Notes: generated by a model not told the origin, from the sequence alone. A DNA stretch of 64,000 nucleotides from an uncultured archaeon (GCA_964486045.1 CAZALK010000016.1:32001-96000); one strand, 5' to 3'. Shown: positions 18,819 to 59,877, counted from the stretch's first letter. Numbers and translations are program-made.

Positions 18819-19751
18819 ATGTTTGAATATCACGAATTTATGGTTTTTGAGGTTGGAGACTCTGGGGATAAAAATCAGATAAATATTGAGAAGGAAGAAT
18901 TAAATTTTTATCTACATCCTGAAAAAGCCTTGATAATTGTCAGAGAAGATTTAAGAAGAATTTATCTCTGGAAAGGAGCAAGATCTAATGTTCGAAAACG
19001 ATTTTTAGGTTCTCGAACTGCTACAGAAATACAGGGTGAAATAATGAAACAAGGATATCATAGATGTAAAGTAATATCGGTTGATCAGGGAGATGAAGTC
19101 GAAGAATTTTTAAATGTTTTTGGTTTAGAATCAATGAAAGTATCCGAAAAGCTTGAAGATAAAGTGATTCTTCGGAATAGTGAGCGAGATCGTTTAGAGC
19201 AGCAAAAAATACTTGATACAAAAATCGAGACATCTGAATCTTCGAAACTCGATGAGATTAAGAAGTTTTTAGACGGTGATGAAAGCATGATTTGGATTAA
19301 AAGTACTACATTGAAGATAACGAAGGATTGGCTAAATTCACTAGTAAAAAATAAAAAATATAAAAATAGAATGAAAAAATTAGGAAAGTTAGATGATATA
19401 GGAGAGGAAACATTTGAGAAAAGAGAAGTAATAACGAATAAAAGACTTCTCACTAACAATAAGATCAATGAATTTTATGATTTTTCGGGGATATCGGAGA
19501 GTAATTTCCAATTACAGGGAAATGTCGCCGCTTTAAACTTGAAAGGGCTTAGAGCTTTCGATATAGAGGAATCGAAAGGGATATACAATATTTGGTTTCA
19601 TGCTGAACCAGAAAATGAAGGTGATTACGCGTTTCTTTTTGAAGGTCTTACAACCGAAGAATATTATAAAATTATTAATATTTTTACAACCTCATATATA
19701 GCAGAGATACCAAAACAAGCGGGAAAATTAACGTATATTCAGAAAAGTTAA
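18819..19751 (+). CDS. Gelsolin-like domain protein with a PH-like C-terminal region
   Basis: RRIYLWKG...VDQGDEVEEFLNVF gelsolin signature; C-terminal LDGDESMIW...VITNKRLL. Confidence 0.75.
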   Translation: MFEYHEFMVFEVGDSGDKNQINIEKEELNFYLHPEKALIIVREDLRRIYLWKGARSNVRKRFLGSRTATEIQGEIMKQGYHRCKVISVDQGDEVEEFLNVFGLESMKVSEKLEDKVILRNSERDRLEQQKILDTKIETSESSKLDEIKKFLDGDESMIWIKSTTLKITKDWLNSLVKNKKYKNRMKKLGKLDDIGEETFEKREVITNKRLLTNNKINEFYDFSGISESNFQLQGNVAALNLKGLRAFDIEESKGIYNIWFHAEPENEGDYAFLFEGLTTEEYYKIINIFTTSYIAEIPKQAGKLTYIQKS

Positions 19752-27400: not shown

Positions 27401-29174
27401 TGGAGAATTATTTGACTCAGGATATACAGACGTAAATGGTTTCTACAACATTACTGATTTATTAATTGGCTGGTGGACCGTAAATGTTTCATTACCGGGC
27501 TATGATCTATTATCTCAATTTGATTATATCAATTGGAGAGGAGATGATGATTATCTCACGTTTTACTTAGCTATGAACGTACCTGTATTCTCTGGTACAG
27601 TTGCAATCTTTCGAGATAGACTTCCATGGAATTTAAACATGACAGAACCTGTCTTAGTGAATTATGGTATTCCGTATACTCTCTATAATTCTTCTGATTT
27701 TGGTTCTGTTGATCTTTCATCATTTGATAAAGTTATTATCCCTTCTGATCAAACTCAAACTTTTTACAATAGACTTTCAGGAAATAGTTCATGGTTTGAA
27801 TCCTACGTGTCGAACGGAGGCTTTCTTGATTTACGCCTTACTGATCGAGGTTGGGCTAGTAGTAATTGGGATGGATTAGTTATGCCCGGAGGCTTGAACA
27901 AAACTTGGGTGTATCTCGAAGATGTCTCAATTAATTTGCCTTTACATCCAATATTAAATAATCCATTTTTAGTGGAGGATGTCGAGCTCGATGGATGGCT
28001 TTATTCAGCACATGGATATTTCCATCAATACCCTACCGACGCAAAGAAAATTCTCCTCTATCCTGCTGCTAATGAACCAGTCATGCTTGAATTTATGTAT
28101 GGCTCTGGTTTTATAGTCGCTACAATGCAAACAATAGAGTGGAATGAGAATAAAAATCTTACTCGGATACTTGAAAACATGATTCTTTACAATCCTGGAG
28201 ATGGTTTTGCCTCTATAAATGTCACTTCTCCTATTAACACCGATTCATGGGATATTTCCACAACTCATACAATTACTTGGGATGCCACGGGTACATTCCC
28301 TAATGTAAAGATTGATCTCTATGAGAATGGAGTGTTTGTCATGGAACTTGCGGCATCTACACCAAATGACGGAAGTTATTCATGGGATGTTCCTATAGGA
28401 CTTAGCAATTCTACGTTATATCAAATAAAAGTTTCAGATGTTGACTATCCAGCAACGACTGATTTTAGTGACAATTTCGAGATAGAAGATTTACGTTCTC
28501 TTACTGTCGTCGTGCCTGATAGTACTACAACTTGGGCATTAGGCGATATACAAGACATCACCTGGACCTCGACCGGAAGCATCGCAAACGTAAAAATCGA
28601 GCTTTATGAGAATGGTGGTCTCTTATTGGTACTTGCAGCATCAACTTCTAATGATGGTTCTTTTTCCTGGACTATTCCAATAAGTCTTAGTGAGTCCCTA
28701 TTATATCAAATAAGAGTCTCAGACGCCTTAGATACCGCGATGGAAGATTACAGTGAAAATTTTGAGATTGAAGATACTCGATCTATTACTGTCGTCGTGC
28801 CGGATAGTTCTAGCTCATGGATATTTGAAAACACTTATGATATTAGTTGGACATCTACTGGCCCTATAGCTAATGTTAAGATTGAACTATATGCAAGTTT
28901 AATCTTAGTAATGGTGATTACAGCATCCACATCAAATGATGGGTTATATTCATGGCTTGTACCTAATACGCTAGTAAATTCCACAGAATACATAATAAGA
29001 ATAAGCGACGTCTTATATCCAATAATATATGATGATAGCGATACTTTTACGATAAGTGGTCCTTCAAGTGCAATTCCTGGATATGATTTATTGATTCTAA
29101 GTAGTCTTTTAGTTGGTGTTTCAATATATCTAATCATTAGAAAACGGAAGAAATTAAGCATTCCAGATAGTTAA
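24417..29174 (+). CDS. Large surface-anchored V8/glutamyl-endopeptidase-like serine protease (propeptide, protease, CARDB-like, 6 beta-sandwich repeats, 3 Kre9/KNH-like repeats, Loki-CTERM-like tail)
   Basis: LTAGH, HDWAV, DTAGGMSGGPV, VHAYG; DEFDETNN; NDGSYSW-type x3; IPGYDLL-TM-RKRKK. Confidence 0.88.
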   Translation: MFKMKKKSIKISALLFFGLLFLSNVYGVIGAIPSESSEETNSSAEELIDTEVPIYDDNTNVVAGLEPIDFTGEEFSEPVNYDRDAIEWRPIEESLRNYEFNSEVAGASIATASYNVATGVETIKDPQFFPSAEVMPDLSFVEPYAGLLAGENGAEAVIGADDRLWRTDNDVYPWRTVVKIYTSAADGTNWIGSGAMIDNYHVLTAGHVAFLPDNGGWASQLEIVPGMDTSDTPPDPYGHAYATLMRSYTGWTVSESSQHDWAVITLDRNVGMYTGWMGRTTAGSSSSIYSGTMNVAGYPGDLFGGNRMYWDADAGDGATSNNHYYWADTAGGMSGGPVWRYVSGSRYIMSVHAYGRGGTDSNFGTRLNNDKYDRIFTWLGADSAPTDKADLVDRGSAYDLITSGTWTASVTTVTLTNGIRNVGTASSGTYNVHYYASTNDYISTFDYYIGTSTSESTGAFGTDSATFTGTLPANIPAGVYYIGWIIDNDDTVDEFDETNNRAVYASQRTILGAPPPSGYIEVTVRDSVTSSLISSAFVSVKDNTDTVIDTGWTDGSGFYNITGLDIGWHTIDVSKVGYYDQQKVDYINWDGDDDYLTFYMVEMPPDSSYIEVIVRDSVTSSLIPSAYVQVTNMSSGLVIDTGYTNGAGFYNATGLFIGWYEISVSKTGYKDQTKQNYINWNGDDDYLWFYLDKMPINSGYIEVRTYNETGGVLSGVLVRAWNNSGATLVSQGFTNINGTYNITGLVIGWYEVNVTYLAYQEQSKSDYINWNGDDDYLSFWMVPNPPDSGYIEVNVYDSASFLPISWATIEVTNQSSGLLIQTGFTDPSGFYKVVNLTIGWYTVEIKKVGYQSQSKQTYINWAGDDDYLTFYMVELPPDSGYIEVTVKDDDTLAPIQNVLVTTYYSNGTYFSSGWTDSLGFYNVTGLYIGWYEVVVTHSNYGGDSIMDYINWNGDDDYLNFYLVIKPPGWIEVSVYDSRSYIPISNALVRCYNTTSGELFDSGYTDVNGFYNITDLLIGWWTVNVSLPGYDLLSQFDYINWRGDDDYLTFYLAMNVPVFSGTVAIFRDRLPWNLNMTEPVLVNYGIPYTLYNSSDFGSVDLSSFDKVIIPSDQTQTFYNRLSGNSSWFESYVSNGGFLDLRLTDRGWASSNWDGLVMPGGLNKTWVYLEDVSINLPLHPILNNPFLVEDVELDGWLYSAHGYFHQYPTDAKKILLYPAANEPVMLEFMYGSGFIVATMQTIEWNENKNLTRILENMILYNPGDGFASINVTSPINTDSWDISTTHTITWDATGTFPNVKIDLYENGVFVMELAASTPNDGSYSWDVPIGLSNSTLYQIKVSDVDYPATTDFSDNFEIEDLRSLTVVVPDSTTTWALGDIQDITWTSTGSIANVKIELYENGGLLLVLAASTSNDGSFSWTIPISLSESLLYQIRVSDALDTAMEDYSENFEIEDTRSITVVVPDSSSSWIFENTYDISWTSTGPIANVKIELYASLILVMVITASTSNDGLYSWLVPNTLVNSTEYIIRISDVLYPIIYDDSDTFTISGPSSAIPGYDLLILSSLLVGVSIYLIIRKRKKLSIPDS
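25965..27572 (+). repeat. Six ~90-aa intragenic repeats
   Basis: Each approximates GYIEV...GxTxxxGFYNITGLxIGWY...YINWxGDDDYLxF. Confidence 0.9.
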
Positions 29175-29935: not shown

Positions 29936-30135
29936 TAATGGGAAATTATAGTGTAAATCGAAATTCAACTAATTTTTTTTTAATTCTTTTTTTGTCGAGA
30001 TCTACTATGAATTTAATTCAAATGAATTGAAATATACTTAGATAATTTTGGTTGAAAAAATGAATTAAATCGAAATATAGTAAAATGCTTTCAAATTAAT
30101 TTATAATATCTATTTTGAGGACACAGAAAAAAATT

Positions 30136-31662
30136 ATGGCAAGAGTTCTAGCTTTTGACATAGGTGCCAGTTCGGGAAGAGCAATAGTAGGGATATTAGA
30201 AAATGGAGTATTAAAGCTTGATGAAATTTACAGGTTCAGAAATGAAGGAGTTCGCGTTAATAATTCACTCTATTGGGATGTCTTAAGAATATTTCAAAAA
30301 ATGAAAAAAAGCTTGTTAATTTATATGAAAAAATATGGACCTATTCTAGATTCTATAGGTGTAGACACATGGGGTGTAGATTTTGTGTTACTTGATGAAA
30401 ATGATGAATTAATTGGACCAATCCACCATTATCGAGATCATAGAACAGATGGAATGCTTGAAGAGCTTTTCAAAGCCATCCCAGAAGAAGAAATTTTCAA
30501 TCAAACTGGAACTATGTTTGCACAAATTAATACTAGTGTTCAACTCTTTTCATTGCTCCACAATAATTCTCCTCGAGTTTCTATTGCAAAAACTTTTCTA
30601 ATGTTACCTGATTATTTTAACTTTTTATTTTCTGGAAAAAAGTATTGTGAATCTTCAGACGTTAGCACTTCGCAGTTATATAATCCTATTAAAAAGAATT
30701 GGGCTTTTGATTTAATTAAGAAGCTTAAACTTGACTCGAATATGTTTCCTGAAATAATTCAGTCAGGAACTGTTTTAGGAACTATCCAAGATCATATTGC
30801 TGATGAAGCGGGGTTGAGTCATGAAACTAAAATCAGTCTTCCCTTAACCCATGACACTGGATCAGCTGTAGCTGCTGTTCCAGTTGATATGGATAAATAT
30901 AATCCTGGAAAATGGGCATATCTCAGCTCAGGCACTTGGGGTTTATTAGGAGTTGAATTGGATAACCCCATAATTAACCAAAAAGTATTGAAATATAATT
31001 TTACTAATGAGGTCGGATTGCATTTTACAACAAGATTCTTGAAGGGCATAACTGGTCTCTGGTTAATCCAGGAATGTAAAAAACAATGGGAAACAAAAGA
31101 TTCCAATTTAACTTGGGATAAAATAGAATTTGAAGCAGAAGGATCTCAGCAATTTCAGAATTTCATAGATATTGATGACAAAATCTTTTTTAATTCCCCA
31201 AATATGATTGATAGTATTCAGAAACGATGTAAAAAGCATAACAAAATCCCACCAAAAACAATCGGACAAATTTCAAGGGCAATTTTTGAAAATCTTGCCT
31301 TCAAATATAAAGAGATTCTTGAACAATTGGAAGAATTGATAGGGAACAAAATTGAAATTCTCCATATCATTGGGGGTGGTAGTCAAAATAAATTATTGAA
31401 TCAATTTACTTCCAATATATTGAATATTCCCGTTTTAGCAGGACCTTCAGAAGCAACAGCAATAGGGAATATTTTAACTCAGGCTTTAGCTTTGGGTGAA
31501 CTTAAAGATATAAAGGATTTAAGACGTATAGTAAGAAAATCTTTTCAGATAATTGAATATACACCAATTGATAATGACAAATGGAGTGATGCTTATAATT
31601 TATATTTATCAAATATGGATGAAGAGGAAAGAGAAAAAAAATGGATGCTCGAGAAAGAGTAA
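30136..31662 (+). CDS. rhaB: Rhamnulokinase/L-fuculokinase (FGGY family)
   Basis: LAFDIGASSGR, DTWGVD, HDTGSAV, YLSSGTW, FTNE, IIGGGSQN, GPSEATAIGN. By context it probably acts as the fuculokinase. Confidence 0.9.
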   Translation: MARVLAFDIGASSGRAIVGILENGVLKLDEIYRFRNEGVRVNNSLYWDVLRIFQKMKKSLLIYMKKYGPILDSIGVDTWGVDFVLLDENDELIGPIHHYRDHRTDGMLEELFKAIPEEEIFNQTGTMFAQINTSVQLFSLLHNNSPRVSIAKTFLMLPDYFNFLFSGKKYCESSDVSTSQLYNPIKKNWAFDLIKKLKLDSNMFPEIIQSGTVLGTIQDHIADEAGLSHETKISLPLTHDTGSAVAAVPVDMDKYNPGKWAYLSSGTWGLLGVELDNPIINQKVLKYNFTNEVGLHFTTRFLKGITGLWLIQECKKQWETKDSNLTWDKIEFEAEGSQQFQNFIDIDDKIFFNSPNMIDSIQKRCKKHNKIPPKTIGQISRAIFENLAFKYKEILEQLEELIGNKIEILHIIGGGSQNKLLNQFTSNILNIPVLAGPSEATAIGNILTQALALGELKDIKDLRRIVRKSFQIIEYTPIDNDKWSDAYNLYLSNMDEEEREKKWMLEKE

Positions 31663-32828
31663 TAAAAGCAATAAATCATGAAGAACCGGATAAGGTTCCC
31701 TCATATGAAGGTTCTATAGATAATTTAAAGGTTTTAAACCACTATGATGAACAATATGGAATGGATGGACTAGCGACAATCCAAGAAATGATTTTTAAGC
31801 AGGCTTCTGAGAACCTTGATCTCTTAAATAAACAAATGCAGGGTGCATCTTCAAATAAAACTGCTGCTAAGTCTATGGTTGAACCATCAATAAGACTTTA
31901 CAATAAAATTGGTCTTGATTTGGTACCTATAGCTTTATGCATTCACCCTTATAAATTTTTTAGAAATGGGTTTATAAGTGAATTTGGCCATAGATTTGAA
32001 TATAAAGAAAATCCTTCTGATGGCATGCATCTTCTTTATTATATGGGTGGAACAATAAATAATTTTGAGGAGTATGAGGAGTTTCCTCTTCCAGATCCGG
32101 ACAGTCCTCTTAGAGAGAATATGTTCAAATCTTCAAAAAAGATTGAAGAAGAAAGTAATGGGAAAATTTGTTGTGCACCAGGAATCACCGGGATGATGGA
32201 AATGACGTGGGAAGGATTTGGACTAGAAAATTTTAGCAGGTTACTAGCCAATAAGAAAAATGTTAAAAAAGTATTTGATGATCGCGGTAAATTTTCTGTA
32301 GAGATGGTCAAAAGAATTATAGAATGGGGGGGAACAGGGCCTATGTTAGTTTTTGATGATTATGGCTATAAAAAAGGCTTATTCATGAGCCCAAAGAATT
32401 ATCGAGAATTAGTCATACCTTGGCTAGGCATGATTTGTGAAACTGCTCACAAAGGAGGATTACAAGTAATTTTACATAGCTGTGGAGATATTTACGAAAT
32501 TTTTGAGGATATTATAAATGCAGGAGTCGATGCCATTAATCCAATTGAACCAACCACTGCAAATCCAGATTATAATATCTTCGATTTGTATAATAAATAT
32601 GGGGGCGAAATTACATTTGTAGGGAATGTATCCCCACAAGATCTAGCAGAGAAAAACCCACAAGATATAATAGACTATACTAAAAGATTGATAAAACATG
32701 TTGCTCCTGGAGGAGGACTAATCCTTAGCTCAGGACATAGTATTAATCCTGCTGTGAAGTTAGAAAACTTTTTGGCGATGAGAAACAGCTTAGAAAAATA
32801 TGGTTCATATCCCATTAAAATCAATTAA
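31641..32828 (+). CDS. UroD/MtaA-CmuA family (cobamide methyltransferase-like) protein
   Basis: RERVIKAINHEEPDKVP, DDYG..KGLFMSP, LHSCG, GNV, GGGLILSSGHS. Confidence 0.88.
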   Translation: MDARERVIKAINHEEPDKVPSYEGSIDNLKVLNHYDEQYGMDGLATIQEMIFKQASENLDLLNKQMQGASSNKTAAKSMVEPSIRLYNKIGLDLVPIALCIHPYKFFRNGFISEFGHRFEYKENPSDGMHLLYYMGGTINNFEEYEEFPLPDPDSPLRENMFKSSKKIEEESNGKICCAPGITGMMEMTWEGFGLENFSRLLANKKNVKKVFDDRGKFSVEMVKRIIEWGGTGPMLVFDDYGYKKGLFMSPKNYRELVIPWLGMICETAHKGGLQVILHSCGDIYEIFEDIINAGVDAINPIEPTTANPDYNIFDLYNKYGGEITFVGNVSPQDLAEKNPQDIIDYTKRLIKHVAPGGGLILSSGHSINPAVKLENFLAMRNSLEKYGSYPIKIN

Positions 32829-32891
32829 GATAAATGATTTTCAATTTACATTAAATAAAAGTATTTATTGAGATAGCTCGTAAAAGTAATT

Positions 32892-35591
32892 ATGATTAAT
32901 CCTCCTAATAATTTAAGATGTGAATACCTAAAAAATCCTATAAATATTGACACTTCACTTCCCCGATTTTCATGGACATTAGAACACAAGAAGAGGAATC
33001 AATATCAATCGGCTTATCAAATTATTGTTTCTTCAGATTCAGAACGTTCAACCTCAGAAACAGGAGATATTTGGAATTCTGGAAAAGTTACCTCTAAAAA
33101 ATCTAATAACATAAGGTTTCAGGGGAAATCTCTTGAGAGTTATAAGCTTTATTACTGGCGTGTAAAATGGTGGGATAAAGAAGGTTCAGAGAGTGCCTTC
33201 AGTAATGTATCAACTTTTGGAATGGCACTTTTAGAGGAATCTGATTGGAAAGCAAAGTGGATCAGTAAAGGAGAATTTGTTAACAAACGAACAAGACGAG
33301 AATTCCAATATAAATCTGGAGGAAGAGGTCTTTTTGGCAGGTTAAGAGAAGTAAATGCAATCTATTTAAGAAAAGAATTTAATTTAGAAAAACCAATTAA
33401 AACAGCTAAACTTTACATCTGTGGATTAGGCTATTACCATTTGAGGATAAATGGGGAGAGAATAGGGGATCGAATATTAGATCCCGCACAGACGGATTAT
33501 AATAAAATTGCACTCTACTCAACATATGATATTACTGATAATTTACAAGAAAATAATGCTGTTGGTGTTATATTGGGAAATGGGCGATGTGTTGAGCTTT
33601 ACGGCTATGATTTTCCTAAACTCATAGTTCAGATTCATATAAATTATAAAGACGGAACTACTGGAATTGTAAGTACTGACAAGAGTTGGAAAGTATCAAC
33701 TGGACCTATTTTGGAGAATGGAATCTATTATGGTGAGAAGTACGACGCTCGACTTGAAATACCCGGATGGGATCATCCTAATTTTGAAGATAAAGCTTGG
33801 GATAATGTAACTGTTGTCGAAGGGTATAAATTAACCTCCCAGTTAATGCAACCAATAAATATAACTAAGGTTATGAACCCTCAAAAAATGGAGAGCCCTC
33901 AACCTGGAATGTATGTTTATGATTTTGGTCAAAATTTTACGGGATTTGTTTGTTTAAAAGTTCGAGGTCCTAGAGGAGATCAGGTAACCTTAAAATTTGC
34001 TGAAAATATAAAGGAAGACGGGACATTAAATTTTGCTACTAATAGATCTGCTCCCGTAAACGAGATATATATTCTTAAAGGAGAAGGAGAAGAAATATTT
34101 CAACCTCATTTCACCTATCATGGTTTCAGATATGTTGAGTTAACAGGATTTCCAGGTGTTCCAACATTGGAAACTATCGAAGGATTATTTTTTCATAGTA
34201 ATGTACCGAAGGTAGGTAATTTCATATGCTCAAATGATTTAATTAATAAGATTCATAAAAACATTATTTGGGGGCAGCTAAGTAATTTGATGAGTATTCC
34301 AACGGATTGTCCACAGAGGGATGAAAGACATGGATGGATGGGAGATGCCCAACTTGCGGCTGAAGAGGCAATCTTAAATTTTGATATGGCACGATTCTAT
34401 TCGAAGTATTTACAAGATATAAAATTATCTCAAAGGGATGATGGGAGCATATCAGATGTAGTTCCACCATATTGGCCTATATATCCGGCTGATCCCGCGT
34501 GGGGTACGGCGTATATCACTATTGCGTGGTATTTATATTGGTATTATAATGACATCCGGGTACTTAAAGAGCATTATAAATCATTGAAATTTTATGTTGA
34601 TTTTCTTTCTAGTAATGCCCGAAACAATATTCTATCTGTAGGGGGTAAATATGGTGATTGGTGTCCTCCAATGTGTATCGTTTCAAAAAGAACACCTCTG
34701 GATTTGGTTTCTACATGGCATTATTATCATGATACACTATTATTTTCAAAAATAGCAAAAATTTTAGGCGAGGACTATGACTACAATAAATATTCTGAAA
34801 AAGGAGAGGAAATAAAGGATGCATTTAATAGAGAATATTTAATGCGTACCTATAAATATATTAAAGTTTCCTTTACTGACGGAGCGATAAGTCAAACATC
34901 AAATGTACTACCATTATATCTTAACATGGTTCCTGAAGATAAAGAAAAATCGATATTGAATAACCTTATAGAAGCTATAACCGGTCATTATGATTATCAT
35001 ATTGATACAGGGATCGTGGGAACGAGATATATTTTTGAAGTATTAACTGACAATGGATATCCTGAAATTGCATATAAGATGATAACTCAAAAAAGTTTTC
35101 CGGGGTATGGTTATATGATTAGAGAGGGAGCAACTACGTTATGGGAAAGATGGGAAAAACTGGAAAGCTCAGGGATGAATTCGCACAATCATATTATGCT
35201 AGGATCTGTAGATACATGGTTCTATAAAACTTTAGCGGGAATTTCATCTCTAGAACCAGGATGGAATACCTTACAAATAAAACCCTTTGTTCCAGATGAT
35301 ATGAATTATGCAACTGCAAGTATAGATACCATTAAAGGAAGGATATATAGTGCTTGGGAAAAAATTGAGGATAAACTAGTTATTACTCTAAAAATTCCTG
35401 TAGGATGTAAAGCAGAGACATGGATACCAATAAAAGATATCAAAAACGAAATTAAAGAGGGAGACAGAATAATTTGGAAGGATGGGGAACAACCAGAAAC
35501 AAATAGTGAAATAGAATTCAAAGAATTAAAAGCAAATTATTTGATAATAAGTATAGGTTCTGGTTATTATAAGTTTAGTGTACAATATTAA
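32892..35591 (+). CDS. Alpha-L-rhamnosidase, GH78
   Basis: LRCEY..NP, DFGQN, FTYHGFRY, PTDCPQRDERHGWMGD, GATTLWERW, SHNH; no signal peptide. Confidence 0.95.
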   Translation: MINPPNNLRCEYLKNPINIDTSLPRFSWTLEHKKRNQYQSAYQIIVSSDSERSTSETGDIWNSGKVTSKKSNNIRFQGKSLESYKLYYWRVKWWDKEGSESAFSNVSTFGMALLEESDWKAKWISKGEFVNKRTRREFQYKSGGRGLFGRLREVNAIYLRKEFNLEKPIKTAKLYICGLGYYHLRINGERIGDRILDPAQTDYNKIALYSTYDITDNLQENNAVGVILGNGRCVELYGYDFPKLIVQIHINYKDGTTGIVSTDKSWKVSTGPILENGIYYGEKYDARLEIPGWDHPNFEDKAWDNVTVVEGYKLTSQLMQPINITKVMNPQKMESPQPGMYVYDFGQNFTGFVCLKVRGPRGDQVTLKFAENIKEDGTLNFATNRSAPVNEIYILKGEGEEIFQPHFTYHGFRYVELTGFPGVPTLETIEGLFFHSNVPKVGNFICSNDLINKIHKNIIWGQLSNLMSIPTDCPQRDERHGWMGDAQLAAEEAILNFDMARFYSKYLQDIKLSQRDDGSISDVVPPYWPIYPADPAWGTAYITIAWYLYWYYNDIRVLKEHYKSLKFYVDFLSSNARNNILSVGGKYGDWCPPMCIVSKRTPLDLVSTWHYYHDTLLFSKIAKILGEDYDYNKYSEKGEEIKDAFNREYLMRTYKYIKVSFTDGAISQTSNVLPLYLNMVPEDKEKSILNNLIEAITGHYDYHIDTGIVGTRYIFEVLTDNGYPEIAYKMITQKSFPGYGYMIREGATTLWERWEKLESSGMNSHNHIMLGSVDTWFYKTLAGISSLEPGWNTLQIKPFVPDDMNYATASIDTIKGRIYSAWEKIEDKLVITLKIPVGCKAETWIPIKDIKNEIKEGDRIIWKDGEQPETNSEIEFKELKANYLIISIGSGYYKFSVQY

Positions 35592-36616
35592 ACTGCTTGA
35601 AAAAGAGCTTCAATATTTTCAGGAGAAATATCCGGAAGAATTGCTTCATGACTCGGAGATATTATTAATCCTGTAGGGAAAATTTTCTTTAATTCATGGA
35701 CTTTTGTTCTTACCTGATTAGGAGTGCCAAACACTAATAATTCTTGTGCATCAACTCCACCACAGAAAGACACTTGTTTAAAAAAAAATTCCTTCAATTT
35801 TTTGGGCTCCATATCCGTTGCCAATGCTTGAATAGGATGAATTGCATCAATATTCAGTTTTATTAATTCTGGAATAGCCTCAAATATAGAACCACAGGAA
35901 TGATAGATTACTTTTAAGCCGTAACTTTTAGCTTGATCTACTATTTTTTTGGCTCCAGGCATTGCAAATTTGTTTATAAGCTTGGGAGATAGCATTAAAC
36001 GTTTTTGACCTCCAAAATCATTTCCAATAAGAATCGCATCAAGTTTCCCTTTAGTCGCTTCATAAAATATTTTATTAGATTTTAGATAAAAATCCACAAT
36101 TTTATTATGAACTTCTATAAAAATTTCTGGTCGTTTGAGCATATTAATAAACGCTTTTTCCATTCCAAAAGCAGAATAGACATCTTGGAAATGGGCTGAC
36201 CAGAGTACACCCATTATCGCAAAATCTTCAGGCACTGCGTCTACAACCCTTCTACATTCCTCGGGATCAATATGATCTGTAGGATCAGGCCAATCAAAGG
36301 CATCAATATCATTCTTTAAAGGATCTTTATAATCTTCGAAAAAACCGGGAGCAGTTAAAGATCGATTTTCCATGGATTGTCCCCCTTTCGGGAAATTAAA
36401 TGCCATTGCGATATGATTGTTTGGAGGATCATTATATGGTATATCGATTTCCCAAATATCTGTATCTATTTTTAATTTCAACTCTTGTAGATTCTGAACA
36501 TTAAAATATTTAAATAAGTTTTCTAATGCAGCTGCTACGGGCATCCCCAGCCAACATGCGGGTCTATCTACCGGCTTGCGCTCGATTGTAGCTAAAAATC
36601 TTTCTTTATGATTCAA
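35588..36616 (-). CDS. UroD/MtaA-CmuA family protein
   Basis: KERFLATIERKPVDRP, NDFGGQ..LMLSP, YHSCG, HPIQ, GGVDAQ, ISPSHE. Confidence 0.88.
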   Translation of the reverse strand: MNHKERFLATIERKPVDRPACWLGMPVAAALENLFKYFNVQNLQELKLKIDTDIWEIDIPYNDPPNNHIAMAFNFPKGGQSMENRSLTAPGFFEDYKDPLKNDIDAFDWPDPTDHIDPEECRRVVDAVPEDFAIMGVLWSAHFQDVYSAFGMEKAFINMLKRPEIFIEVHNKIVDFYLKSNKIFYEATKGKLDAILIGNDFGGQKRLMLSPKLINKFAMPGAKKIVDQAKSYGLKVIYHSCGSIFEAIPELIKLNIDAIHPIQALATDMEPKKLKEFFFKQVSFCGGVDAQELLVFGTPNQVRTKVHELKKIFPTGLIISPSHEAILPDISPENIEALFQAV

Positions 36617-36627
36617 CTAATTCTACC

Positions 36628-37992
36628 CTAGCTCAATATTATCTTAAATGAAATTGCAGGTGAATCTTCGATTTTTTCGGGGAGTTTAATAATTAAATTA
36701 TTATCTTTCATCCTCCACTGTAGGTTTTCTTCAATTCCCAGTAGATTAACTTCTGAAATTTCTTTTATATCAAGATCTTCTATAATTATTTCATCTTTTT
36801 CTGGTTTCCCCATTACAATCACATAGAGATTCTCTTTATTATTTGTAAATCTCACGGGGATTGCTTCAGTGGTAGTTCCTTCAGCATGGTTCCAAGGTCT
36901 AGTTCTAAAAATAGCCTCTCCATTCACATCTAACCATCTACCAAGCTCTAATAGCCGTTGTTCTTGAATTTCAGGAATTTTACCATCTACCATTGGACCG
37001 ACATTTAGTAGAAGATTTCCATTTTTACTTACAATATCAACAAGTAAAAAGACTAAATCTTTAAGCGTTAAGTAATCATCTTCCGATTCAAATTGATTAT
37101 ATCCAAAAGAATTGCCGATTCCCCTGCAAACCTCCCATTTTTTCTTCTTTATTTTCTTTTCTATCTTATATTCAGGTGTGGTATAATCATAATGAATTGA
37201 TCGAAACCTCTTCTCTTTGGGAAGATATTGATTCCATCTATTATTCACAACACCTTCGGTTATATTGTTATAATAGTAAGCAAAAATTTCATACAGATCA
37301 ACCCCAGCAGGATATCCCATATCACTCCACAGAATTTCAGGTTGATATCTATCAATTAGCTCGTACCAATGATTAGTTACCCATTTTGCGTATTTTATGC
37401 TTTGCTCATAATGTTTGGTAAAGCTTGGACCATCCATTATTGGGAAAAGATTAAAGGACCAATCCCAAGCACTTGAGTAATAAAAACCCATATTCATTCC
37501 TTCTTTTTTAACGGCACTCGTCAGTTCTCCAACTATATCTCTATTAGCAATATAATTTTCTTTATTTGGATTAGGGTATTTACTTGGCCATAAAAGAAAA
37601 CCCTCGCAATGTTTTGTTGTTAGAATAACATATTTTGCTCCAATTTTCTTAAATAAACTAGCCCATTTTTTCGGATTCCATTTTTTAATTCCTTCATTGA
37701 AAAGAGGAACAAAATCATCATAAGAGAAATTCTCTCCATAATTTTTAAAATGATATTCTTGAGTTGGGCTTCCATCAACTCTTAGAGAATTTAAATACCA
37801 TTCAGCATAGGGATTATTTTTGAAATGTTCTTCTGCTCCTCTTTTCAAAGAATCTACAAGGTCTATTCCTGTTACTGCAAAAGCCGGAACAGAAAAGAGT
37901 CCCCAATGGATAAAAATACCGAGTTTGGCATCATGAAACCACTCAGGGATTTTATGCTGCTTTATTGATTCAGAAGTTGGTAGAAATTTCAT
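36628..37992 (-). CDS. Alpha-L-fucosidase, GH29
   Basis: WFHDAKLGIFIHWG, YAEWY, TKHCEGF, LWSD nucleophile, SFGYN, VSKNGNLLLNVGP. Confidence 0.96.
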   Translation of the reverse strand: MKFLPTSESIKQHKIPEWFHDAKLGIFIHWGLFSVPAFAVTGIDLVDSLKRGAEEHFKNNPYAEWYLNSLRVDGSPTQEYHFKNYGENFSYDDFVPLFNEGIKKWNPKKWASLFKKIGAKYVILTTKHCEGFLLWPSKYPNPNKENYIANRDIVGELTSAVKKEGMNMGFYYSSAWDWSFNLFPIMDGPSFTKHYEQSIKYAKWVTNHWYELIDRYQPEILWSDMGYPAGVDLYEIFAYYYNNITEGVVNNRWNQYLPKEKRFRSIHYDYTTPEYKIEKKIKKKKWEVCRGIGNSFGYNQFESEDDYLTLKDLVFLLVDIVSKNGNLLLNVGPMVDGKIPEIQEQRLLELGRWLDVNGEAIFRTRPWNHAEGTTTEAIPVRFTNNKENLYVIVMGKPEKDEIIIEDLDIKEISEVNLLGIEENLQWRMKDNNLIIKLPEKIEDSPAISFKIILS

Positions 37993-38074
37993 TTTTATTC
38001 TCTTCAGAAGTTTTTTAATCTTATAATAGGTTTTTTTGGCAAATCTAGCAAAATATGATATTTAAAAAATAAGT

Positions 38075-39436
38075 TTAAAATATTTTTAGAACATAAGCAG
38101 CAGAGTCAGATATACTTTTTGGTAAAGACATCTCAATATTTTCACCTTTTTGTTTCCATGTTAGGCTTTTTTCATTACCTAATAATTGTATTTTTTTAGA
38201 TTCTTCAATTTTAATTGATATTATCGTTAAATTTTTTTGTTGTGGTTTGTCTAACATATGTATATACAAAATTTCACCTTTCTGTGTAAATCTAAGGTCG
38301 ATATCATCTGAAGTTTTTCCCTCTGCCCTCTCCCAAGGTCGAGTTCCATATATTGCTTCCCCATTTATTTCAAGCCATTTACCAAGGCCTAGTATAGCTT
38401 TCTTTTGGAATTCTGGAATTGTACCATCTGCCATAGGTCCAACATTAAGTAAAAGATTTCCATTTTTACTTACAATATCAATAAACATAACTATTAACTC
38501 TTTGGGACTGAGATAATCTTGTTCAGTTTCCATTTGATTATACCCGAATGAATGACCGACTCCACGGGTACTTTCCCACTTATAATCTGTAATTTCGGGC
38601 ATTATCTTGTACTCTGGAGTTGCAAAGTCTCGATGTCTCACTTTAGGATGTTTAAAATTTGATTTCTGAATTTGGATCCATCTATCGTTTACTACTCCAT
38701 CAGGATGCTTATTATAAAAGTAAGCAAAAATTTCATAGACGTTGGTGTTTGGTGGATATCCTATATCGTTCCATAATATAATAGGATCGTAATCATCAAT
38801 TAATTCATACCAGTGATTATTGGCATAATTAGTATATTCTATCATGGTTGGACCATTAGTGTTAAAACTCTTACCATCGCTTATTGGTATTGGATTCCAT
38901 GACCAATCTAAAGCCCCGGAATAGTAAAATCCCATCTTTAATCCACTTCCTTTAACTGTCTTAGTAAGTTCTCCTACTATATCTCGACTTGCGTGATAAT
39001 TATCTTTATTGGGATTTGGATATTTACTCGGCCATAGCGTGAATCCATCATGATGTTTAGTTACTAAAACAACATACTTTGCTCCAGCTTTTTTAAATAA
39101 TTCAACCATTTTATCCGGATTCCACTTTTGTATCTCATCATTAAAAATAGATACAAAATCGTCATATTCAGATTCCTCACCATAATTTTCTTTTTGATAT
39201 TTTTGTGTTGGACTTCCATTAATTCGGAGTGAATTTAAATACCACTCAGCGTAAGGATTATTTTTAAAATGCTCTTCAATTCCCCTCTTCTGTGATTCAC
39301 CGAGATCAATTTTCGATTGAGCAAAAGCAGGAACAGAGAAGAGCCCCCAATGAATAAAAATACCAAGTTTAGCGTTATTAAACCAATCAGGAACCTTATG
39401 TGATTTAATTGATTCCTTATCTGGTGTATAATTCAT
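38075..39436 (-). CDS. Alpha-L-fucosidase, GH29 (tandem paralog)
   Basis: AKLGIFIHWG, YAEWY, TKHHDGF, LWND, SFGYN, NGEAIYGTRPW. Confidence 0.96.
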   Translation of the reverse strand: MNYTPDKESIKSHKVPDWFNNAKLGIFIHWGLFSVPAFAQSKIDLGESQKRGIEEHFKNNPYAEWYLNSLRINGSPTQKYQKENYGEESEYDDFVSIFNDEIQKWNPDKMVELFKKAGAKYVVLVTKHHDGFTLWPSKYPNPNKDNYHASRDIVGELTKTVKGSGLKMGFYYSGALDWSWNPIPISDGKSFNTNGPTMIEYTNYANNHWYELIDDYDPIILWNDIGYPPNTNVYEIFAYFYNKHPDGVVNDRWIQIQKSNFKHPKVRHRDFATPEYKIMPEITDYKWESTRGVGHSFGYNQMETEQDYLSPKELIVMFIDIVSKNGNLLLNVGPMADGTIPEFQKKAILGLGKWLEINGEAIYGTRPWERAEGKTSDDIDLRFTQKGEILYIHMLDKPQQKNLTIISIKIEESKKIQLLGNEKSLTWKQKGENIEMSLPKSISDSAAYVLKIF

Positions 39437-39489
39437 ATTTTACCTTTTCTTATTTTTAGATGTATTATATTAATAAAATATTACCTTTA

Positions 39490-41298
39490 TTATTTATATA
39501 ATGGTCCCAATGCCTTACATGCTCTAAAGTCTGCTCCTTCTAAGTCTTTCGTTCCATATGCACTCCATGTGCTTGGTCGAAAAATTAATTCTTCTGGAAC
39601 ATTATGCATACTTACGGGAATTCTTAATAAAGAAGTTAAAGTTAGCATTTTAGCCCCTATATGACCGTAGCATAAAGCACCATGATTTGCACCCCAGTTA
39701 TTCATAACATTATAAACTGATTTAAAAGCACCCTCTCCGGTTAATTTTGGAACGAACCACGTTGTAGGCCAAGTATTATTTGTACGATCATCTAGAATCT
39801 GGTGAATTTCTTCAGGAATATTGATTGCCCATCCTTCAGCCAATTGAAACACTAAACCAAGATCTTTTATTATATTTACTCTTGACATAGTCATGGGCAT
39901 AACCCCTTTTGTAAGGAAGTTGGAAGAAAAGCCACCACCTCGGAAATATTCATTAACGACAGAATCCCACTTAGTTGACGCAAGACATCTTTCCATTTCT
40001 TCGACAGAAATTTTCCAAAAGGGTTTCATAACGGGTTGATTATTAGATTCTTGCTGACCAGTTCCATCCATTGAAGCTGAACCAGAATTGATTAAGTGTA
40101 TCATTCCATTTTTTGCTTTTCCAGTTAATTCCATTCGAGTGACACGTTTTACAGCTTCGGGACTCCAATAAGTTCTTACATCAGCAAAAACTTGAGATGT
40201 TTGGGTTAATAGGTGTCCAAAAAGCATAGCAATTCCATTCAATGCATCATTTTCAGTCGCCATTATATAAGGTTGCCTAATTCCATTCCAATCGAATGAG
40301 CTGTTCAATATTGTTTCCATAAAATCTCCATTTGGTAAGAAATCTGTCCATTGACGTTGTCCTTGGAAACCAGCTGCGATCGCATTATGTCCTAGTGATT
40401 CTTCCCCGAATCCAAAATCTTTAAGTCTTGGATTACCTACCATTAGATCTCGACAAATCATAGTCATCTTAATAATTGTTTCCCATTCTTTATCTTTTTG
40501 CTCTCTTGTTTTTTGTACTTCAATAGGATTCGTATCTTTCCCTTCCTTACATTTCTCTCTTACCCATTTTTTAGCTTTAATGTATTCTTCCTTGTCGTAG
40601 ATTTCTTCACTAATTCTTCTAATAATTTCAGACATGTCTACGTATTCGTTTCTCATCCCTAGATAATCTTGAAAATAATTTTCTTGCACAATTGAACCAG
40701 CAATTCCCATAGAAACTCCACCAATAGATAAATATGACTTTCCTCTCATCCATGCTACAGCAAGCCCTGCTTGGGTAAATCGCAGGAGTTTTTCTTTAAC
40801 ATCTTCAGGAATACTTGTGTCATCTTCATCTTGAACATCTTTTCCATAAATACCAAAGGCAGGTAATCCTTTTTGATTGTGAGCTGCTAAAACTGCCGCA
40901 AGGTATACTGCACCAGGTCTTTCTGTCCCATTGAAACCCCATAAAGCTTTGGGTATATAGGGATCCATATCCATCGTTTCAGATCCATAACACCAACAGG
41001 GTGTAACAGTTATAGATAATCCTACGTTTTCTTTTTTGAATTTATCAGCACATAAAGCAGCTTGGGCAACTCCACCTATTGTGGAATCTGCGATAACGGA
41101 TTCAACGGGTAATCCATTTGGGTGTTTTAGGTTCTGAGATAATAAATCTGCTACAGCGTTAGCCATACCCATTGTTTGGTCTTCTAAAGATTCCCTTACA
41201 CCTTTTTCCCTACCGTCAATTGTAGGTCGGATACCTACTTTTGGAATTAATCCTCTTAATCTTCTTACTCCAACATGCCTTTCCAATTTTGACACCAT
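39490..41298 (-). CDS. fucI: L-fucose isomerase
   Basis: [49 protein letters not shown]. Confidence 0.97.
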
Positions 41299-41346
41299 TA
41301 TGAGATTTAAATTACTATATTTTAAATTTAAAATTATAAATGAGTA

Positions 41347-41958
41347 TTACCATTCTGAGAAGTATTTTTCTTTTGAATAATCCCTTTTTAATGATTTCCC
41401 TGTCATCATTGTATAATATCTTATCATGGCTGATTGTTCTGCGCCAGTAACATTTTGAAGGGCATCATATAATGTATTTCCTTTGGCAAAAACTCCATGA
41501 GCTCTTACTACAACAATCGGATAATTTTTAAGGACTTTTGGCACCTCTCTCGCAGCATCTATTGGCCCCGCGGGATTTTCTACTTCAATAACGGGTATTT
41601 TTCTATACCTATAGATACCTTCAGCATCAAGACAGGTGATTGCATCTTCTAAGAGTGATAATATTACACAGAAGGGATTGTGAGCATGAATTACAGCCAT
41701 CGCATCTGTATTTAGATAGATTTGACGATGGACATCTGTTTCTGTGCTTGACAACATAATACCAGAATCGGTCTTATAGAGATCTGTTTCAATAATATCC
41801 TCAAGCTCTAAATATCCTAACATGGCTCCCCTTCTCTTGATGAGGATTTTTCCCCCAGATCTCATACTAATGTTTCCCGAGTGGGAAGTGTTATACCGAT
41901 GATCAGTTAAAATCTTCCCTGTAATATTAAACTGCTTGTAAGTTTCAGCGTCAATCAT
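41347..41958 (-). CDS. fucA: Class II aldolase (L-fuculose-1-phosphate aldolase-like)
   Basis: SGNIS, SSTETDVH, IHAH, RAHG zinc ligands; adjacent to fucI. Confidence 0.82.
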   Translation of the reverse strand: MIDAETYKQFNITGKILTDHRYNTSHSGNISMRSGGKILIKRRGAMLGYLELEDIIETDLYKTDSGIMLSSTETDVHRQIYLNTDAMAVIHAHNPFCVILSLLEDAITCLDAEGIYRYRKIPVIEVENPAGPIDAAREVPKVLKNYPIVVVRAHGVFAKGNTLYDALQNVTGAEQSAMIRYYTMMTGKSLKRDYSKEKYFSEW

Positions 41959-42000
41959 TACATTTCTCGTTAAGATTTTATTTACTTTTAATTATAATTA

Positions 42001-43806
42001 TTAAACTAATCTTTTTATAGATAGCCTTTCAAGTAATTCTTCAGTAGGATTGCCATTTTCATCCCATTGCCTTACAGAGTAATAATCTTGTAAAAGACGT
42101 TTAAGCGGAACTACTTTTCCTTTTGAAGGTCCTTCCATTAGTGGAGTCTCCAAAAATCTACTTGGTAATGTATCATCCTTTTTTGAAAATCCCTCTCTAA
42201 TGTTATATAAGCGCTCTAAATTGTATATTCTTTCTCCTATGGTGATAAGATTAGTAATGGAAATCTCTCTGTTTAAAATAGAACTTAAAAATCTAGCCTG
42301 GAATTCGAATCCAAGGGCGTATCCTACAAATTTGCATACAATTAGAGAATCTTCGACTGCGCTCTGATTTTGTTTTAAAAATAAGAGATCAGATTTACCA
42401 TTAACTGAAAATCTATTAACAAGTTTTGGTACTCCTAGTATTTCTAAAGCAGCCAGAAAGCCTGTTAAATGACAAGCACCTCTGGAACTCACAGCATAAT
42501 TTAAAGCATGACCAAAAGCACCTCTGGGATCGTAAGCTGGAATTTCCATTCCTTTTACTTGCATTGCATAATCCAAAGCATCATGACTTCTTGAAAACCT
42601 TAAAGAACCTTCTGCAAGCTCATCTCCGATTCCATTTCTTGATGCTATTTTTTCAATAATGTTGCAAAGTATCTCTTCTTTCCCAAATTTAAGGTTAGGA
42701 TCGTTAAGAATATTATTTTTCTGAAGATCCATAGCACATGCTATTGTACCTCCCGTTGATATTGTATCTAAGCCATATTCATTACATAAATAATTTGCAT
42801 GTGTAATTTCTTTTAGGTTAAATATTCCTGTTAATGGTCCTAAGGCCCATAGAGATTCGTATTCTGGACCTTTTCCGCTCATCTCCCCCGTGTTTGTCAT
42901 TCTACCGCATTTAATTATACAATTATAACATCCTTCGTTATTTTCTAAATACATTTCTCGTAATTTTTCCCCACTTACCTTATCTATTAAATTTGTATCA
43001 GTAAAAGCTGATTGAAAATTTCTTACTGGAAACATTCCGAATAAATTTATAACTTTCACTAAAGCAGCAGTTCCAAACATTGCTAACCCTTGAGAAGTTA
43101 TTGGAACGACTCTAATCTTATCTAAGGCTATAACATTAAGTTTTCTCATATATTCCTTGTTTTTTATCGGGAATTTTTTATTCCCATTTTTCACAACGAT
43201 CGCTTTAAGGTTTTTTGAACCCATTACGGCTCCGACACCCCCACGACCAAAGGCTCGATGTGCTTGGTTTATTATAGAAGAAAATTTTACGAGGTTTTCC
43301 CCTGCTGGTCCAATACATAAAACTTGAGAGTTTTTCCCTTCTATTTCTTTAATTTTTTTAACTAAATTGGAAGTTTTTAACCCCCATAATTCTAAGGCAT
43401 CTTTTATCTCAACCTTATTATTCCCATCAATTACAATGTATCCTCTATCTTCATCTTGTAATTTATTAGAAATTATTAGGCAATCATATCCACACTTCTT
43501 AAAATAAGGTCCCCAATAACCTCCAGAATTTGAATGAAAAATTGTATTTGTTAAAGGAGATTTGGTCACTAAGGAAAACCTACCACTTGTTGGGACAGTG
43601 CTACTAGTTACAGGACCAACTGAAAAAATTAGGAGATTTTCTTTTGATAGGGGATCAATACCTCTTGGTATAAGATCTGTAAATAGCTTTACACCTAATC
43701 CTCTACCCCCCAAATAGTTTAAAAGAGTTTGACTCTCGATTTCATCAACCATCATCCTTTCAGTTGATAAATCAATATGTAAAATTTGATTATTCATTCC
43801 TTCCAT
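42001..43806 (-). CDS. aor: Aldehyde:ferredoxin oxidoreductase (W/Mo-pterin)
   Basis: YLGGRGLG, KSPLT, IGPAGEN, GRGGVGAVMGSKNLKAI, CYNCIIKC, GPEYE, DTISTG, RGACH. Confidence 0.95.
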   Translation of the reverse strand: MEGMNNQILHIDLSTERMMVDEIESQTLLNYLGGRGLGVKLFTDLIPRGIDPLSKENLLIFSVGPVTSSTVPTSGRFSLVTKSPLTNTIFHSNSGGYWGPYFKKCGYDCLIISNKLQDEDRGYIVIDGNNKVEIKDALELWGLKTSNLVKKIKEIEGKNSQVLCIGPAGENLVKFSSIINQAHRAFGRGGVGAVMGSKNLKAIVVKNGNKKFPIKNKEYMRKLNVIALDKIRVVPITSQGLAMFGTAALVKVINLFGMFPVRNFQSAFTDTNLIDKVSGEKLREMYLENNEGCYNCIIKCGRMTNTGEMSGKGPEYESLWALGPLTGIFNLKEITHANYLCNEYGLDTISTGGTIACAMDLQKNNILNDPNLKFGKEEILCNIIEKIASRNGIGDELAEGSLRFSRSHDALDYAMQVKGMEIPAYDPRGAFGHALNYAVSSRGACHLTGFLAALEILGVPKLVNRFSVNGKSDLLFLKQNQSAVEDSLIVCKFVGYALGFEFQARFLSSILNREISITNLITIGERIYNLERLYNIREGFSKKDDTLPSRFLETPLMEGPSKGKVVPLKRLLQDYYSVRQWDENGNPTEELLERLSIKRLV

Positions 43807-59667: not shown

Positions 59668-59877
59668 TTCTTTTAACTCCCAAATCAGTTAATTTAATTA
59701 TACTATATTTTAAAAAAATCAGAACGTTTTTCTTAACAAGATAATAAACTACTTATTAAAAAACTTAAGGAAATCGATACTGGAAAACTAAAACTTCTTA
59801 TTGCAAAAAAAGATTTTTAAACTTGGAATTAATTTATTTTTATATTATAGTTTATCCATTTGAGAAAGTGTGCTAAG

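Follow-up and report, generated by a model that had tools for sequence, protein, structure and literature searches.

Two UroD/MtaA-superfamily proteins in an archaeal deoxy-sugar gene cluster as candidate corrinoid-dependent demethylases of O-methylated 6-deoxy-hexoses

The cluster described here lies within a stretch of 64,000 nucleotides from an uncultured Asgard archaeon, referred to as the window. As deduced from open reading frames and Pfam/NCBIfam matches, it consists of two converging operons, which overlap by 4 nt at their 3' ends and contain the following genes:

30115..31662, plus strand: FGGY sugar kinase, rhamnulokinase-like (Pfam FGGY_N/C; TIGR02627, 455 bits)
31641..32828, plus strand: P0001, UroD/MtaA superfamily (PF01208, 86.6 bits)
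32892..35591, plus strand: GH78 alpha-L-rhamnosidase (five rhamnosidase Pfam domains)
35588..36616, minus strand: P0002, UroD/MtaA superfamily (PF01208, 81.2 bits)
36628..37992, minus strand: GH29 alpha-L-fucosidase (Alpha_L_fucos, 324 bits)
38075..39436, minus strand: GH29 alpha-L-fucosidase, second copy (Alpha_L_fucos, 309 bits)
39490..41298, minus strand: L-fucose isomerase FucI (NF008220, 1070 bits, above cut-off)
41347..41958, minus strand: class II aldolase (Aldolase_II, 100 bits; PRK08660, 186 bits)
42001..43806, minus strand: aldehyde:ferredoxin oxidoreductase, AOR (AFOR_N, 243 bits; AFOR_C, 419 bits)

The gene order, the 22-nt overlap of the kinase and P0001 genes and the 11-nt gap between the P0002 gene and the adjacent GH29 gene are exactly as described in an earlier sequence-only reading of this DNA. 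The true start of the kinase is likely the ATG at 30136; its TIGR02627 score lies below the cut-off of 528 bits, and the enzyme fits a rhamnulokinase better than a fuculokinase (119 bits with the fuculokinase model). The class II aldolase scores below every NCBIfam cut-off (203 bits for PRK08660), and it is probably a fuculose- or rhamnulose-1-phosphate aldolase. Its gene is separated by 42 nt from that of the AOR on the same strand, and we infer that L-lactaldehyde, as a product of the aldolase, is the substrate oxidised by the AOR. The GH78 enzyme, as judged by inspection of its N-terminus, and the GH29 enzyme encoded at 36628..37992 lack signal peptides and should therefore be cytoplasmic. 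In the earlier description of a complete L-fucose cluster, "complete" is too strong, because neither a transporter nor a mutarotase is encoded within the cluster, the sole kinase is rhamnulokinase-like, and the only RhaA match of the genome (G000:C14:84132-85382) is interrupted by two in-frame stops.

The assignment of P0001 and P0002 to the UroD/MtaA superfamily, as distinct from HemE, was borne out. PF01208 is the sole Pfam match in both proteins and far exceeds its gathering threshold of 23.9 bits, spanning only the C-terminal half or two-thirds, whereas the hemE model TIGR01464 (cut-off 303 bits) yields 20 bits for P0001 and no match for P0002. Likewise, TIGR01463 gives 41.5 and 34.1 bits, respectively (cut-off 235), and the MtaA_Meth model NF040654 gives 52 and 29 bits (cut-off 400). 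As judged from these profile scores, neither protein is a HemE or a true MtaA. Foldseek searches with the AF2 models (pLDDT 92 for P0001 and 85 for P0002) returned UROD and MtaA structures with E values of about 1e-13, the best structural matches being MtaA (PDB 4ay7, 4ay8) with TM scores of up to 0.77; those of P0002 to UROD and MtaA were at about 0.7, accompanied by weak matches to sugar epimerases. The two proteins are unrelated branches of the superfamily.

Aligning the P0001 family profile with MtaA places HSCGD on the MtaA motif HICGN and SSGHS on PGCGI. The metal positions of P0001 are H279, C281, E303 and H366, and P0002 aligns with it at identical metal residues, carrying H239-S-C241-G and S-P-S-H323-E-A as invariant motifs of its family. 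In the family alignments the metal residues are invariant within both families: the His and the first Cys of the MtaA zinc set are kept and the last Cys is replaced by His (SSGHS, SPSHE), so that neither family has the His-Cys-Cys ligands of MtaA. Both would hold the MtaA zinc positions as His-Cys-His, a site assigned by alignment to MtaA; we know of no documented case of this ligand set in a characterised substrate:corrinoid methyltransferase (MT1). The S-methyltransferases of the superfamily are of the His-Cys-Cys type, while in the O-methyltransferases one or both Cys are replaced (PMC10418091).

The P0001 family was found only in Asgard archaea (the phylogeny is a quick IQ-TREE run). Its profile matches CdmB (E 1.7e-8, the best sequence match) and MtaA (2e-6) with the zinc positions aligned. 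A corrinoid protein is encoded immediately beside the P0001-family gene in 7 of 20 Asgard loci, and MFS_2/GPH sugar transporters adjoin such genes in at least five loci; the member at locus L152, which is 59% identical to P0001 and of the HSC type, is flanked by a corrinoid protein and a full-length UroD. A RACo-type activator is present in all 30 Asgard genomes containing the family, compared with 104 of 151 overall. P0001 is therefore regarded as a candidate MT1.

The P0002 family is tightly conserved and mostly bacterial, with 79 loci from more than eight phyla; among 151 Asgard genomes sampled, just 2 were found to have it, with their copies placed within bacterial sequences. The loci were read from genome contigs; the closest homologues, at 75-90% identity, are metagenomic. 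Its profile matched no solved structure by sequence, and a protein atlas offered only generic UroD names. The expected linkage of orthologues to sugar genes is evident: a gene for L-rhamnose mutarotase (RhaM) immediately follows the UroD gene in 32 of 77 loci, fusions of the two are seen in five loci and occur in Prevotellaceae, a RhaT-like importer is encoded in 18 of 79 and GH29 in 14 of 79 (directly upstream in 11), and further neighbours include sugar ABC and SSF transporters, GH31, GH106 and GH78-like genes. MtaC-like corrinoid proteins occur in 11 of the 79 loci, RACo in 10 and either of them in 14, six of which also encode a second, full-length UroD with His-Cys-Cys (MtaA-type); in Bacteroidota and Bacillota, corrinoid protein, RACo and this MtaA-type gene share an operon with the P0002 relative. 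In the other 65 loci, no carrier or activator was found within reach. Relatives of both proteins have corrinoid, activator and sugar-transporter neighbours, with a carrier or activator in the P0002 family at those 14 loci. At the genome level, two sets of genomes with the P0002 family gave RACo in 33 of 50 and 3 of 5 cases, against a baseline of 4 of 201 in a Bacteroidota sample in which only the centre genome has a P0002 orthologue; for 17 of the 55 genomes no match was obtained, and the counts are lower bounds, because the genomes of loci L057 and L079 remained unmatched although the loci hold an open reading frame clustering with RACo. P0002 is likewise a candidate MT1.

The core genes (GH29, P0002-like, FucI and P0001-like) are found together again, in a different order, at three other Asgard loci (L043, L045, and L047, whose position coincides with that of L151), which argues that the sugar linkage is not due to chance. 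Neither the cluster nor these three loci encode a corrinoid protein, an activator or a second methyltransferase (MT2). The sequence-only reading had already noted the lack of a corrinoid protein and expected one to act in trans; indeed, a B12-binding domain is absent from the window, the nearest being encoded at G000:C16:1399-2040, and the genome search for MtaC-like proteins, RamA/RACo-type activators and Wood-Ljungdahl components found all of them. With six full-length MtaC-like corrinoid proteins and a further fragment, a single RACo, two MtrH-like proteins, a pterin-binding protein and CdhC encoded in the genome, all partners could be supplied in trans. It also contains 13 UroD paralogues in varied contexts.

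Gene content, fold, conserved metal positions, the neighbourhoods of relatives and the presence of the partner genes are shown by the analysis; for chemistry, substrate and methyl acceptor, we infer that P0001 and P0002 are the MT1s of a corrinoid-dependent O-demethylase whose substrates would be methylated 6-deoxy-hexoses, for example O-methyl-fucose or O-methyl-rhamnose, or glycosides of these sugars, a reading we hold with somewhat more confidence than doubt. Fucosylated and rhamnosylated oligosaccharides would be imported, and the two GH29 enzymes and GH78 would cleave them inside the cell. The His-Cys-His-bound metal, probably zinc, would polarise the ether oxygen of the sugar, and the methyl group would pass to the Co(I) state of a corrinoid protein encoded elsewhere, from which an MtrH-like or MtaA-like MT2 would load it onto a C1 carrier that feeds the Wood-Ljungdahl pathway, with a RACo-type activator repairing oxidised cofactor. 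The freed sugar would enter the route via FucI, kinase and aldolase, and the lactaldehyde would be oxidised by the AOR. The substrate cues differ, as RhaM suggests rhamnose, but GH29 suggests fucose. For Co(I), an aliphatic methyl ether is a more difficult target than an aryl ether, and to our knowledge no enzyme is known for this reaction; our survey of the literature found no corrinoid-dependent sugar demethylase.

The main counter-evidence comes from the Prevotellaceae with fused UroD-RhaM, which have no dedicated carrier or activator: neither a stand-alone corrinoid protein nor RACo was found in Prevotella (L056, L073, L082), Xylanibacter (L065) and one Phocaeicola (L066), and all of these except L066 carry the fusion. 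Together with the missing B12 genes at most loci, the weak epimerase matches, and the fact that the closest partners RhaM, RhaT and GH29 also handle unmethylated sugars, this would fit metal-dependent TIM-barrel enzymes catalysing a corrinoid-independent step on free 6-deoxy-hexoses, such as isomerisation, epimerisation or transfer of the methyl group directly, with no carrier protein involved. We regard this as unlikely, because it leaves unexplained both the operons of corrinoid protein, RACo and His-Cys-Cys MtaA-type genes in Bacteroidota and Bacillota and the corrinoid proteins adjoining P0001 relatives, because MtaA and CdmB, with aligned zinc positions, rank first among the structural and profile matches, and because the unmethylated pathway is already served by canonical isomerase, kinase and aldolase. 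Corrinoid methyltransferases for a non-sugar donor (methoxylated aromatics, methanol, methylated thiols or halides), placed accidentally in a sugar cluster, are suggested by the chloromethane enzyme CdmB as closest solved relative of P0001 by sequence and by the varied contexts of the 13 paralogues. This appears quite improbable in view of the overlap with the kinase gene, the short gap to GH29 and the recurrence of sugar linkage over domains and phyla in both families (GH29 pairs, RhaM fusion, RhaT, MFS_2); moreover, CdmB lacks the HxC motif, having SFQGE there. A function on the methyl-acceptor side (MT2) or as biosynthetic methyltransferases would agree with MtaA, itself an MT2, as closest fold match, yet it is very improbable given the His as third zinc ligand, in contrast to the His-Cys-Cys of S-methylating MT2s, the separate His-Cys-Cys UroD of bacterial loci, which fits the MT2 role, and the catabolic context. 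True uroporphyrinogen decarboxylases, as which the sole Pfam match and the UROD structures among the Foldseek matches might be read, were rejected as extremely improbable on account of the TIGR01464 scores, the partial Pfam coverage, the HxC motif, the 13 paralogues and the sugar-catabolism context. With regard to a split methionine synthase, the corrinoid protein gene of the bacterial loci adjoins a UroD gene of PF01208, and among the locus open reading frames scanned, a subset of the total, none clustered with or matched the labelled families PF02574 or PF00809.

Pectin, algal walls, invertebrate glycans and marine dissolved organic matter contain methylated forms of fucose, rhamnose, xylose and galactose, and the methyl group blocks ordinary catabolism of the sugar. 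The only sugar demethylases we are aware of are oxygen-requiring P450 enzymes, and we know of no described enzyme for oxygen-free removal of sugar methyl ethers. The two unrelated branches, one distributed over bacteria that degrade glycans and handed on to Asgard archaea, the other Asgard-specific, might be the first to do so. They would load the methyl group onto a B12 protein, from which it would enter the Wood-Ljungdahl pathway in the archaeon studied here, and methylated deoxy-sugars of algal or plant origin or from dissolved organic matter would supply both sugar and C1 units; we see the case for this wider proposal as evenly balanced. If correct, an anaerobic B12-dependent route would explain the use of methyl-sugars by sediment and gut anaerobes, add aliphatic ethers as a new substrate class to corrinoid methyltransferase chemistry, and tie glycan breakdown to methyl metabolism in Asgard archaea. 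The analysis thereby offers two specific proteins for testing, along with a circumscribed group of candidate partners.

P0001 and P0002 share the UroD-fold barrel with the MT1s of three-component corrinoid-dependent O-demethylases and dehalogenases (OdmB, VdmB, MtvB, MtoB, CdmB; PDB 9rui), and their relatives, like these enzymes, have a corrinoid protein, an activator of the RACo type and another methyltransferase encoded nearby. Zinc is present in some MT1s of aryl O-demethylases (PMC13222342), and CdmB homologues have been reported in the CdmB paper for Asgard archaea of the order Sigynarchaeales. However, sequence identity to the known MT1s is very low, their substrates are aryl methyl ethers or halomethanes and do not include carbohydrates, and CdmB has neither the HxC motif, present in P0001 and P0002, nor zinc. 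Unlike the known MT1 systems, the cluster itself holds no partner gene; its neighbours are glycoside hydrolases, and those of the two families include sugar transporters. The methylcobamide:coenzyme M methyltransferases MtaA and MtbA align with both proteins at the HxC motif as well as at the more C-terminal ligand, but MtaA is a thiol-methylating MT2 with Cys as third zinc ligand, whereas P0001 and P0002 have His there and no coenzyme M context. The type 1 mlp clusters contain at least two His-Cys-Cys Mlps and sulfur/selenium genes, without mention of sugars in the respective paper (PMC10418091); membership in this group was rejected, because the families studied here are His-Cys-His and sugar-linked, with only one His-Cys-Cys UroD per locus. 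The P450 demethylases of 6-O-methyl-galactose from porphyran have the same net outcome as proposed here, a sugar methyl ether being removed so that normal catabolism resumes, but they are oxygen-dependent monooxygenases of unrelated fold that release formaldehyde (PMC6292453), as opposed to the anaerobic methyl transfer to cobalt proposed here. Finally, compared with the bacterial L-fucose pathway (FucI, FucK, FucA, FucO/AldA), the cluster has an FGGY kinase, a class II aldolase and a FucI that passes the equivalog cut-off, but the kinase is rhamnulokinase-like and permease and mutarotase are missing; a tungsten- or molybdenum-containing AOR probably takes over the conversion of lactaldehyde in place of FucO/AldA.

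The fucose/rhamnose cluster of the window consists of two converging operons, each containing one gene for a protein of the UroD/MtaA superfamily (P0001 and P0002). The gene order proposed in the sequence-only reading was reproduced, as were the 22-nt overlap of the kinase and P0001 genes and the 11-nt gap between GH29 and P0002 genes; where the two operons converge, 4 nt are shared.

30115 or, more likely, ATG 30136, to 31662, plus strand, FGGY kinase (rhamnulokinase-like)
31641-32828, plus strand, UroD-like protein P0001
32892-35591, plus strand, GH78 rhamnosidase
35588-36616, minus strand, UroD-like protein P0002
36628-37992, minus strand, GH29 fucosidase
38075-39436, minus strand, second GH29 fucosidase
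39490-41298, minus strand, FucI
41347-41958, minus strand, class II aldolase
42001-43806, minus strand, aldehyde:ferredoxin oxidoreductase (AOR), heading the aldolase-FucI operon

The description of this fucose cluster as complete goes too far: no transporter or mutarotase is encoded within it, and the kinase scores as a rhamnulokinase rather than a fuculokinase (455 bits, under the cut-off). Because none of the cluster hydrolases carries a signal peptide, the pathway should be cytoplasmic. The AOR probably substitutes for FucO or AldA by converting L-lactaldehyde to lactate with ferredoxin, which, if true, would be an archaeal variation on the fucose pathway of bacteria. A secreted protein of 1585 aa with CarboxypepD_reg, CARDB and Kre9/KNH Ig-like repeats is encoded at 24417-29174 (plus strand), 940 nt before the kinase operon, and may bind glycans at the cell surface.

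P0001 and P0002 are only 24% identical. Their AF2 models are confident (pLDDT 92 and 85, respectively) and match UROD and MtaA equally (TM up to 0.77). The scores of both proteins for MtaA/CmuA stay under the family cut-offs. The P0001-family profile, which also matches the substrate-side methyltransferase (MT1) CdmB, aligns HSCGD to HICGN and SSGHS to PGCGI of MtaA, which we take to be the zinc ligands of the latter. The same residues are aligned between P0002 and P0001, and H279, C281, E303 and H366 are invariant in the P0001 family, as are H239, C241, Q263 and H323 in the P0002 family, indicating that the zinc positions of the superfamily are kept as His-Cys-His. S-methyltransferases of the superfamily contain His-Cys-Cys, whereas one or both Cys are replaced in O-methyltransferases (PMC10418091).

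The strongly conserved P0002 family (71% mean column identity) is mostly bacterial, with orthologues at 56-64% identity in Bacteroidales, Victivallales, Kiritimatiellales, Pirellulales, Verrucomicrobiota, Clostridia and other groups. It is rare in Asgard archaea (2/151 genomes sampled; absent from all four genomes of the same genus), and in a quick tree the Asgard members branch within the bacterial ones; the family likely reached Asgard by transfer from bacteria. Cultivable organisms encoding a member include Xylanibacter caecicola, Clostridium thailandense, Sunxiuqinia indica and a Paludibacter isolate. Its context was analyzed by calling and clustering the ORFs of 79 loci and annotating cluster representatives. 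MtaC-like corrinoid proteins (carriers) were found in 11 and the activator RACo in 10 of these loci, with either or both in 14, and six contain a second full-length UroD with the canonical His-Cys-Cys site. A RhaT-like importer occurs in 18 loci and GH29 in 14, being directly upstream in 11 that span Asgard, Omnitrophota, Lentisphaerota, Verrucomicrobiota and Deferrimicrobium. Further neighbours are sugar ABC and SSF transporters and GH31, GH106 and GH78-like genes. The gene for L-rhamnose mutarotase (RhaM) lies directly downstream in 32/77 loci, and five Prevotellaceae loci (Prevotella, Xylanibacter) encode a UroD-RhaM fusion in one ORF of about 455 aa:

L056:10001-11368, UroD-RhaM fusion
L065:10001-11359, UroD-RhaM fusion
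L073:10001-11368, UroD-RhaM fusion
L082:3624-4991, UroD-RhaM fusion
L112:10001-11359, UroD-RhaM fusion

Typical operons, those of Paludibacter (GH31-unknown-SSF-UroD-RhaM-RhaT-carrier-UroD(His-Cys-Cys)-RACo) and of Clostridia (LacI-ABC-UroD-RhaM-UroD(His-Cys-Cys)-AraC-carrier-RACo), represent full sets of MT1, carrier, acceptor-side methyltransferase (MT2) and activator tied to sugar uptake. A conserved protein without a Pfam match, whose gene in Phocaeicola and Paludibacter is flanked on one side by GH31 and on the other by an SSF transporter or a corrinoid protein, may be a further unrecognised component of the same system:

L179:8631-9695, minus strand, conserved 354-365-aa protein
L090:7265-8362, plus strand, conserved 354-365-aa protein

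The P0001 family is exclusively Asgard among the best 120 matches and occurs in 30/151 sampled Asgard genomes, all 30 of which encode RACo, versus 104/151 overall. In 7 of 20 loci fetched with wide flanks, a corrinoid protein directly adjoins the family member, and a GPH-type MFS_2 sugar transporter occupies the opposite flank in at least L160, L165 and L166 and is present twice in L153. In L152 (59% identical, HSC type), the neighbours include a full-length UroD as well as a corrinoid protein, and a subclade of six carrier-adjacent members shows a His-Asp-His site. A core of P0001-like, P0002-like, GH29 and FucI genes is kept in varying order in four Asgard genomes (the window cluster and the fucose loci L047, L043 and L045), none of these loci containing a carrier.

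Since two unrelated families both converge on a B12 carrier and sugar transport, corrinoid-dependent removal of sugar methyl ethers is the best explanation for P0001 and P0002, and a reasonably probable one. The substrate cues are split, GH29 pointing to fucose and RhaM, RhaT and GH78 to rhamnose. A carrier-independent sugar-modifying activity is rather unlikely. RACo was detected in 33/50 plus 3/5 P0002-family genomes versus 4/201 in a Bacteroidota sample, a contrast inflated by relatedness and anaerobic lifestyle; these counts are lower bounds, as loci L057 and L079 hold a RACo-clustering ORF without any PF14574 match genome-wide. Stand-alone corrinoid proteins were present in 11/17 further genomes (15 without a RACo match plus those of L057 and L079). 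Three Prevotella, Xylanibacter caecicola and one Phocaeicola contain no stand-alone corrinoid protein, only a long MetH-like B12 protein. The four Prevotellaceae among them carry the fused UroD-RhaM, and none of the four fusion genomes checked (L112 left out) yielded a stand-alone corrinoid protein or RACo match. These carrier-less genomes are the strongest evidence against a strict need for a dedicated carrier. A methyl donor other than a sugar appears improbable next to the recurrent sugar genes, and an MT2 or biosynthetic role, with the canonical site found in the accompanying second UroD, highly so. HemE can practically be dismissed, TIGR01464 giving 20 bits for P0001 and nothing for P0002 against a cut-off of 303 bits.

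Corrinoid-dependent demethylation would find its partners elsewhere in the host genome (G000), which encodes 13 UroD paralogues (four adjoining corrinoid proteins). Its MtaC-like proteins number six at full length (C1:109255, C3:155631, C5:100566, C7:208411, C16:1399 and C17:9380), with one further fragment, and it also has a single RACo (C1:797450), two MtrH-like proteins (C20:61417 and C22:9578), CdhC and a pterin-binding protein. A homocysteine S-methyltransferase and an MttB-like protein accompany one of the carriers, so the genome has an established capacity for corrinoid methyl transfer. The carrier nearest to the cluster shares its contig but lies beyond the window, at a distance of about 62 kb. 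A 552-aa protein with SAM-methyltransferase and CdhD-like (CO dehydrogenase/acetyl-CoA synthase delta subunit) domains is encoded at 61874-63532 (minus strand). The sole RhaA match (G000:C14:84132-85382, 578 bits), on another contig, is split into three short ORFs by one TGA and one TAG in frame, and the rhamnose branch (GH78 and rhamnulokinase-like kinase) may lack its isomerase, unless the stops are assembly errors. The assembly comprises 5.18 Mb with 7.8% estimated contamination, the four same-genus genomes about 3.5 Mb, and the fucose cluster is accessory. Its GC content (0.32-0.36) is close to that of its flanks (0.29-0.33), and homologues named Promethearchaeota or Lokiarchaeota fit with an Asgard genome. 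Gelsolin-repeat proteins are typical eukaryote-like signature proteins of Asgard archaea, and the two encoded at 18819-19751 and 59860-60732 (both plus strand) support an archaeal contig despite the bacterial-type sugar genes.

The literature searched describes P450 sugar demethylases, and MT1 systems for aryl or halomethane substrates, but no corrinoid-dependent sugar demethylase. New in this analysis are the archaeal instance, the UroD-RhaM fusion, the AOR within the operon, and a second, Asgard-specific family (P0001) directly adjoining carriers and GPH transporters.
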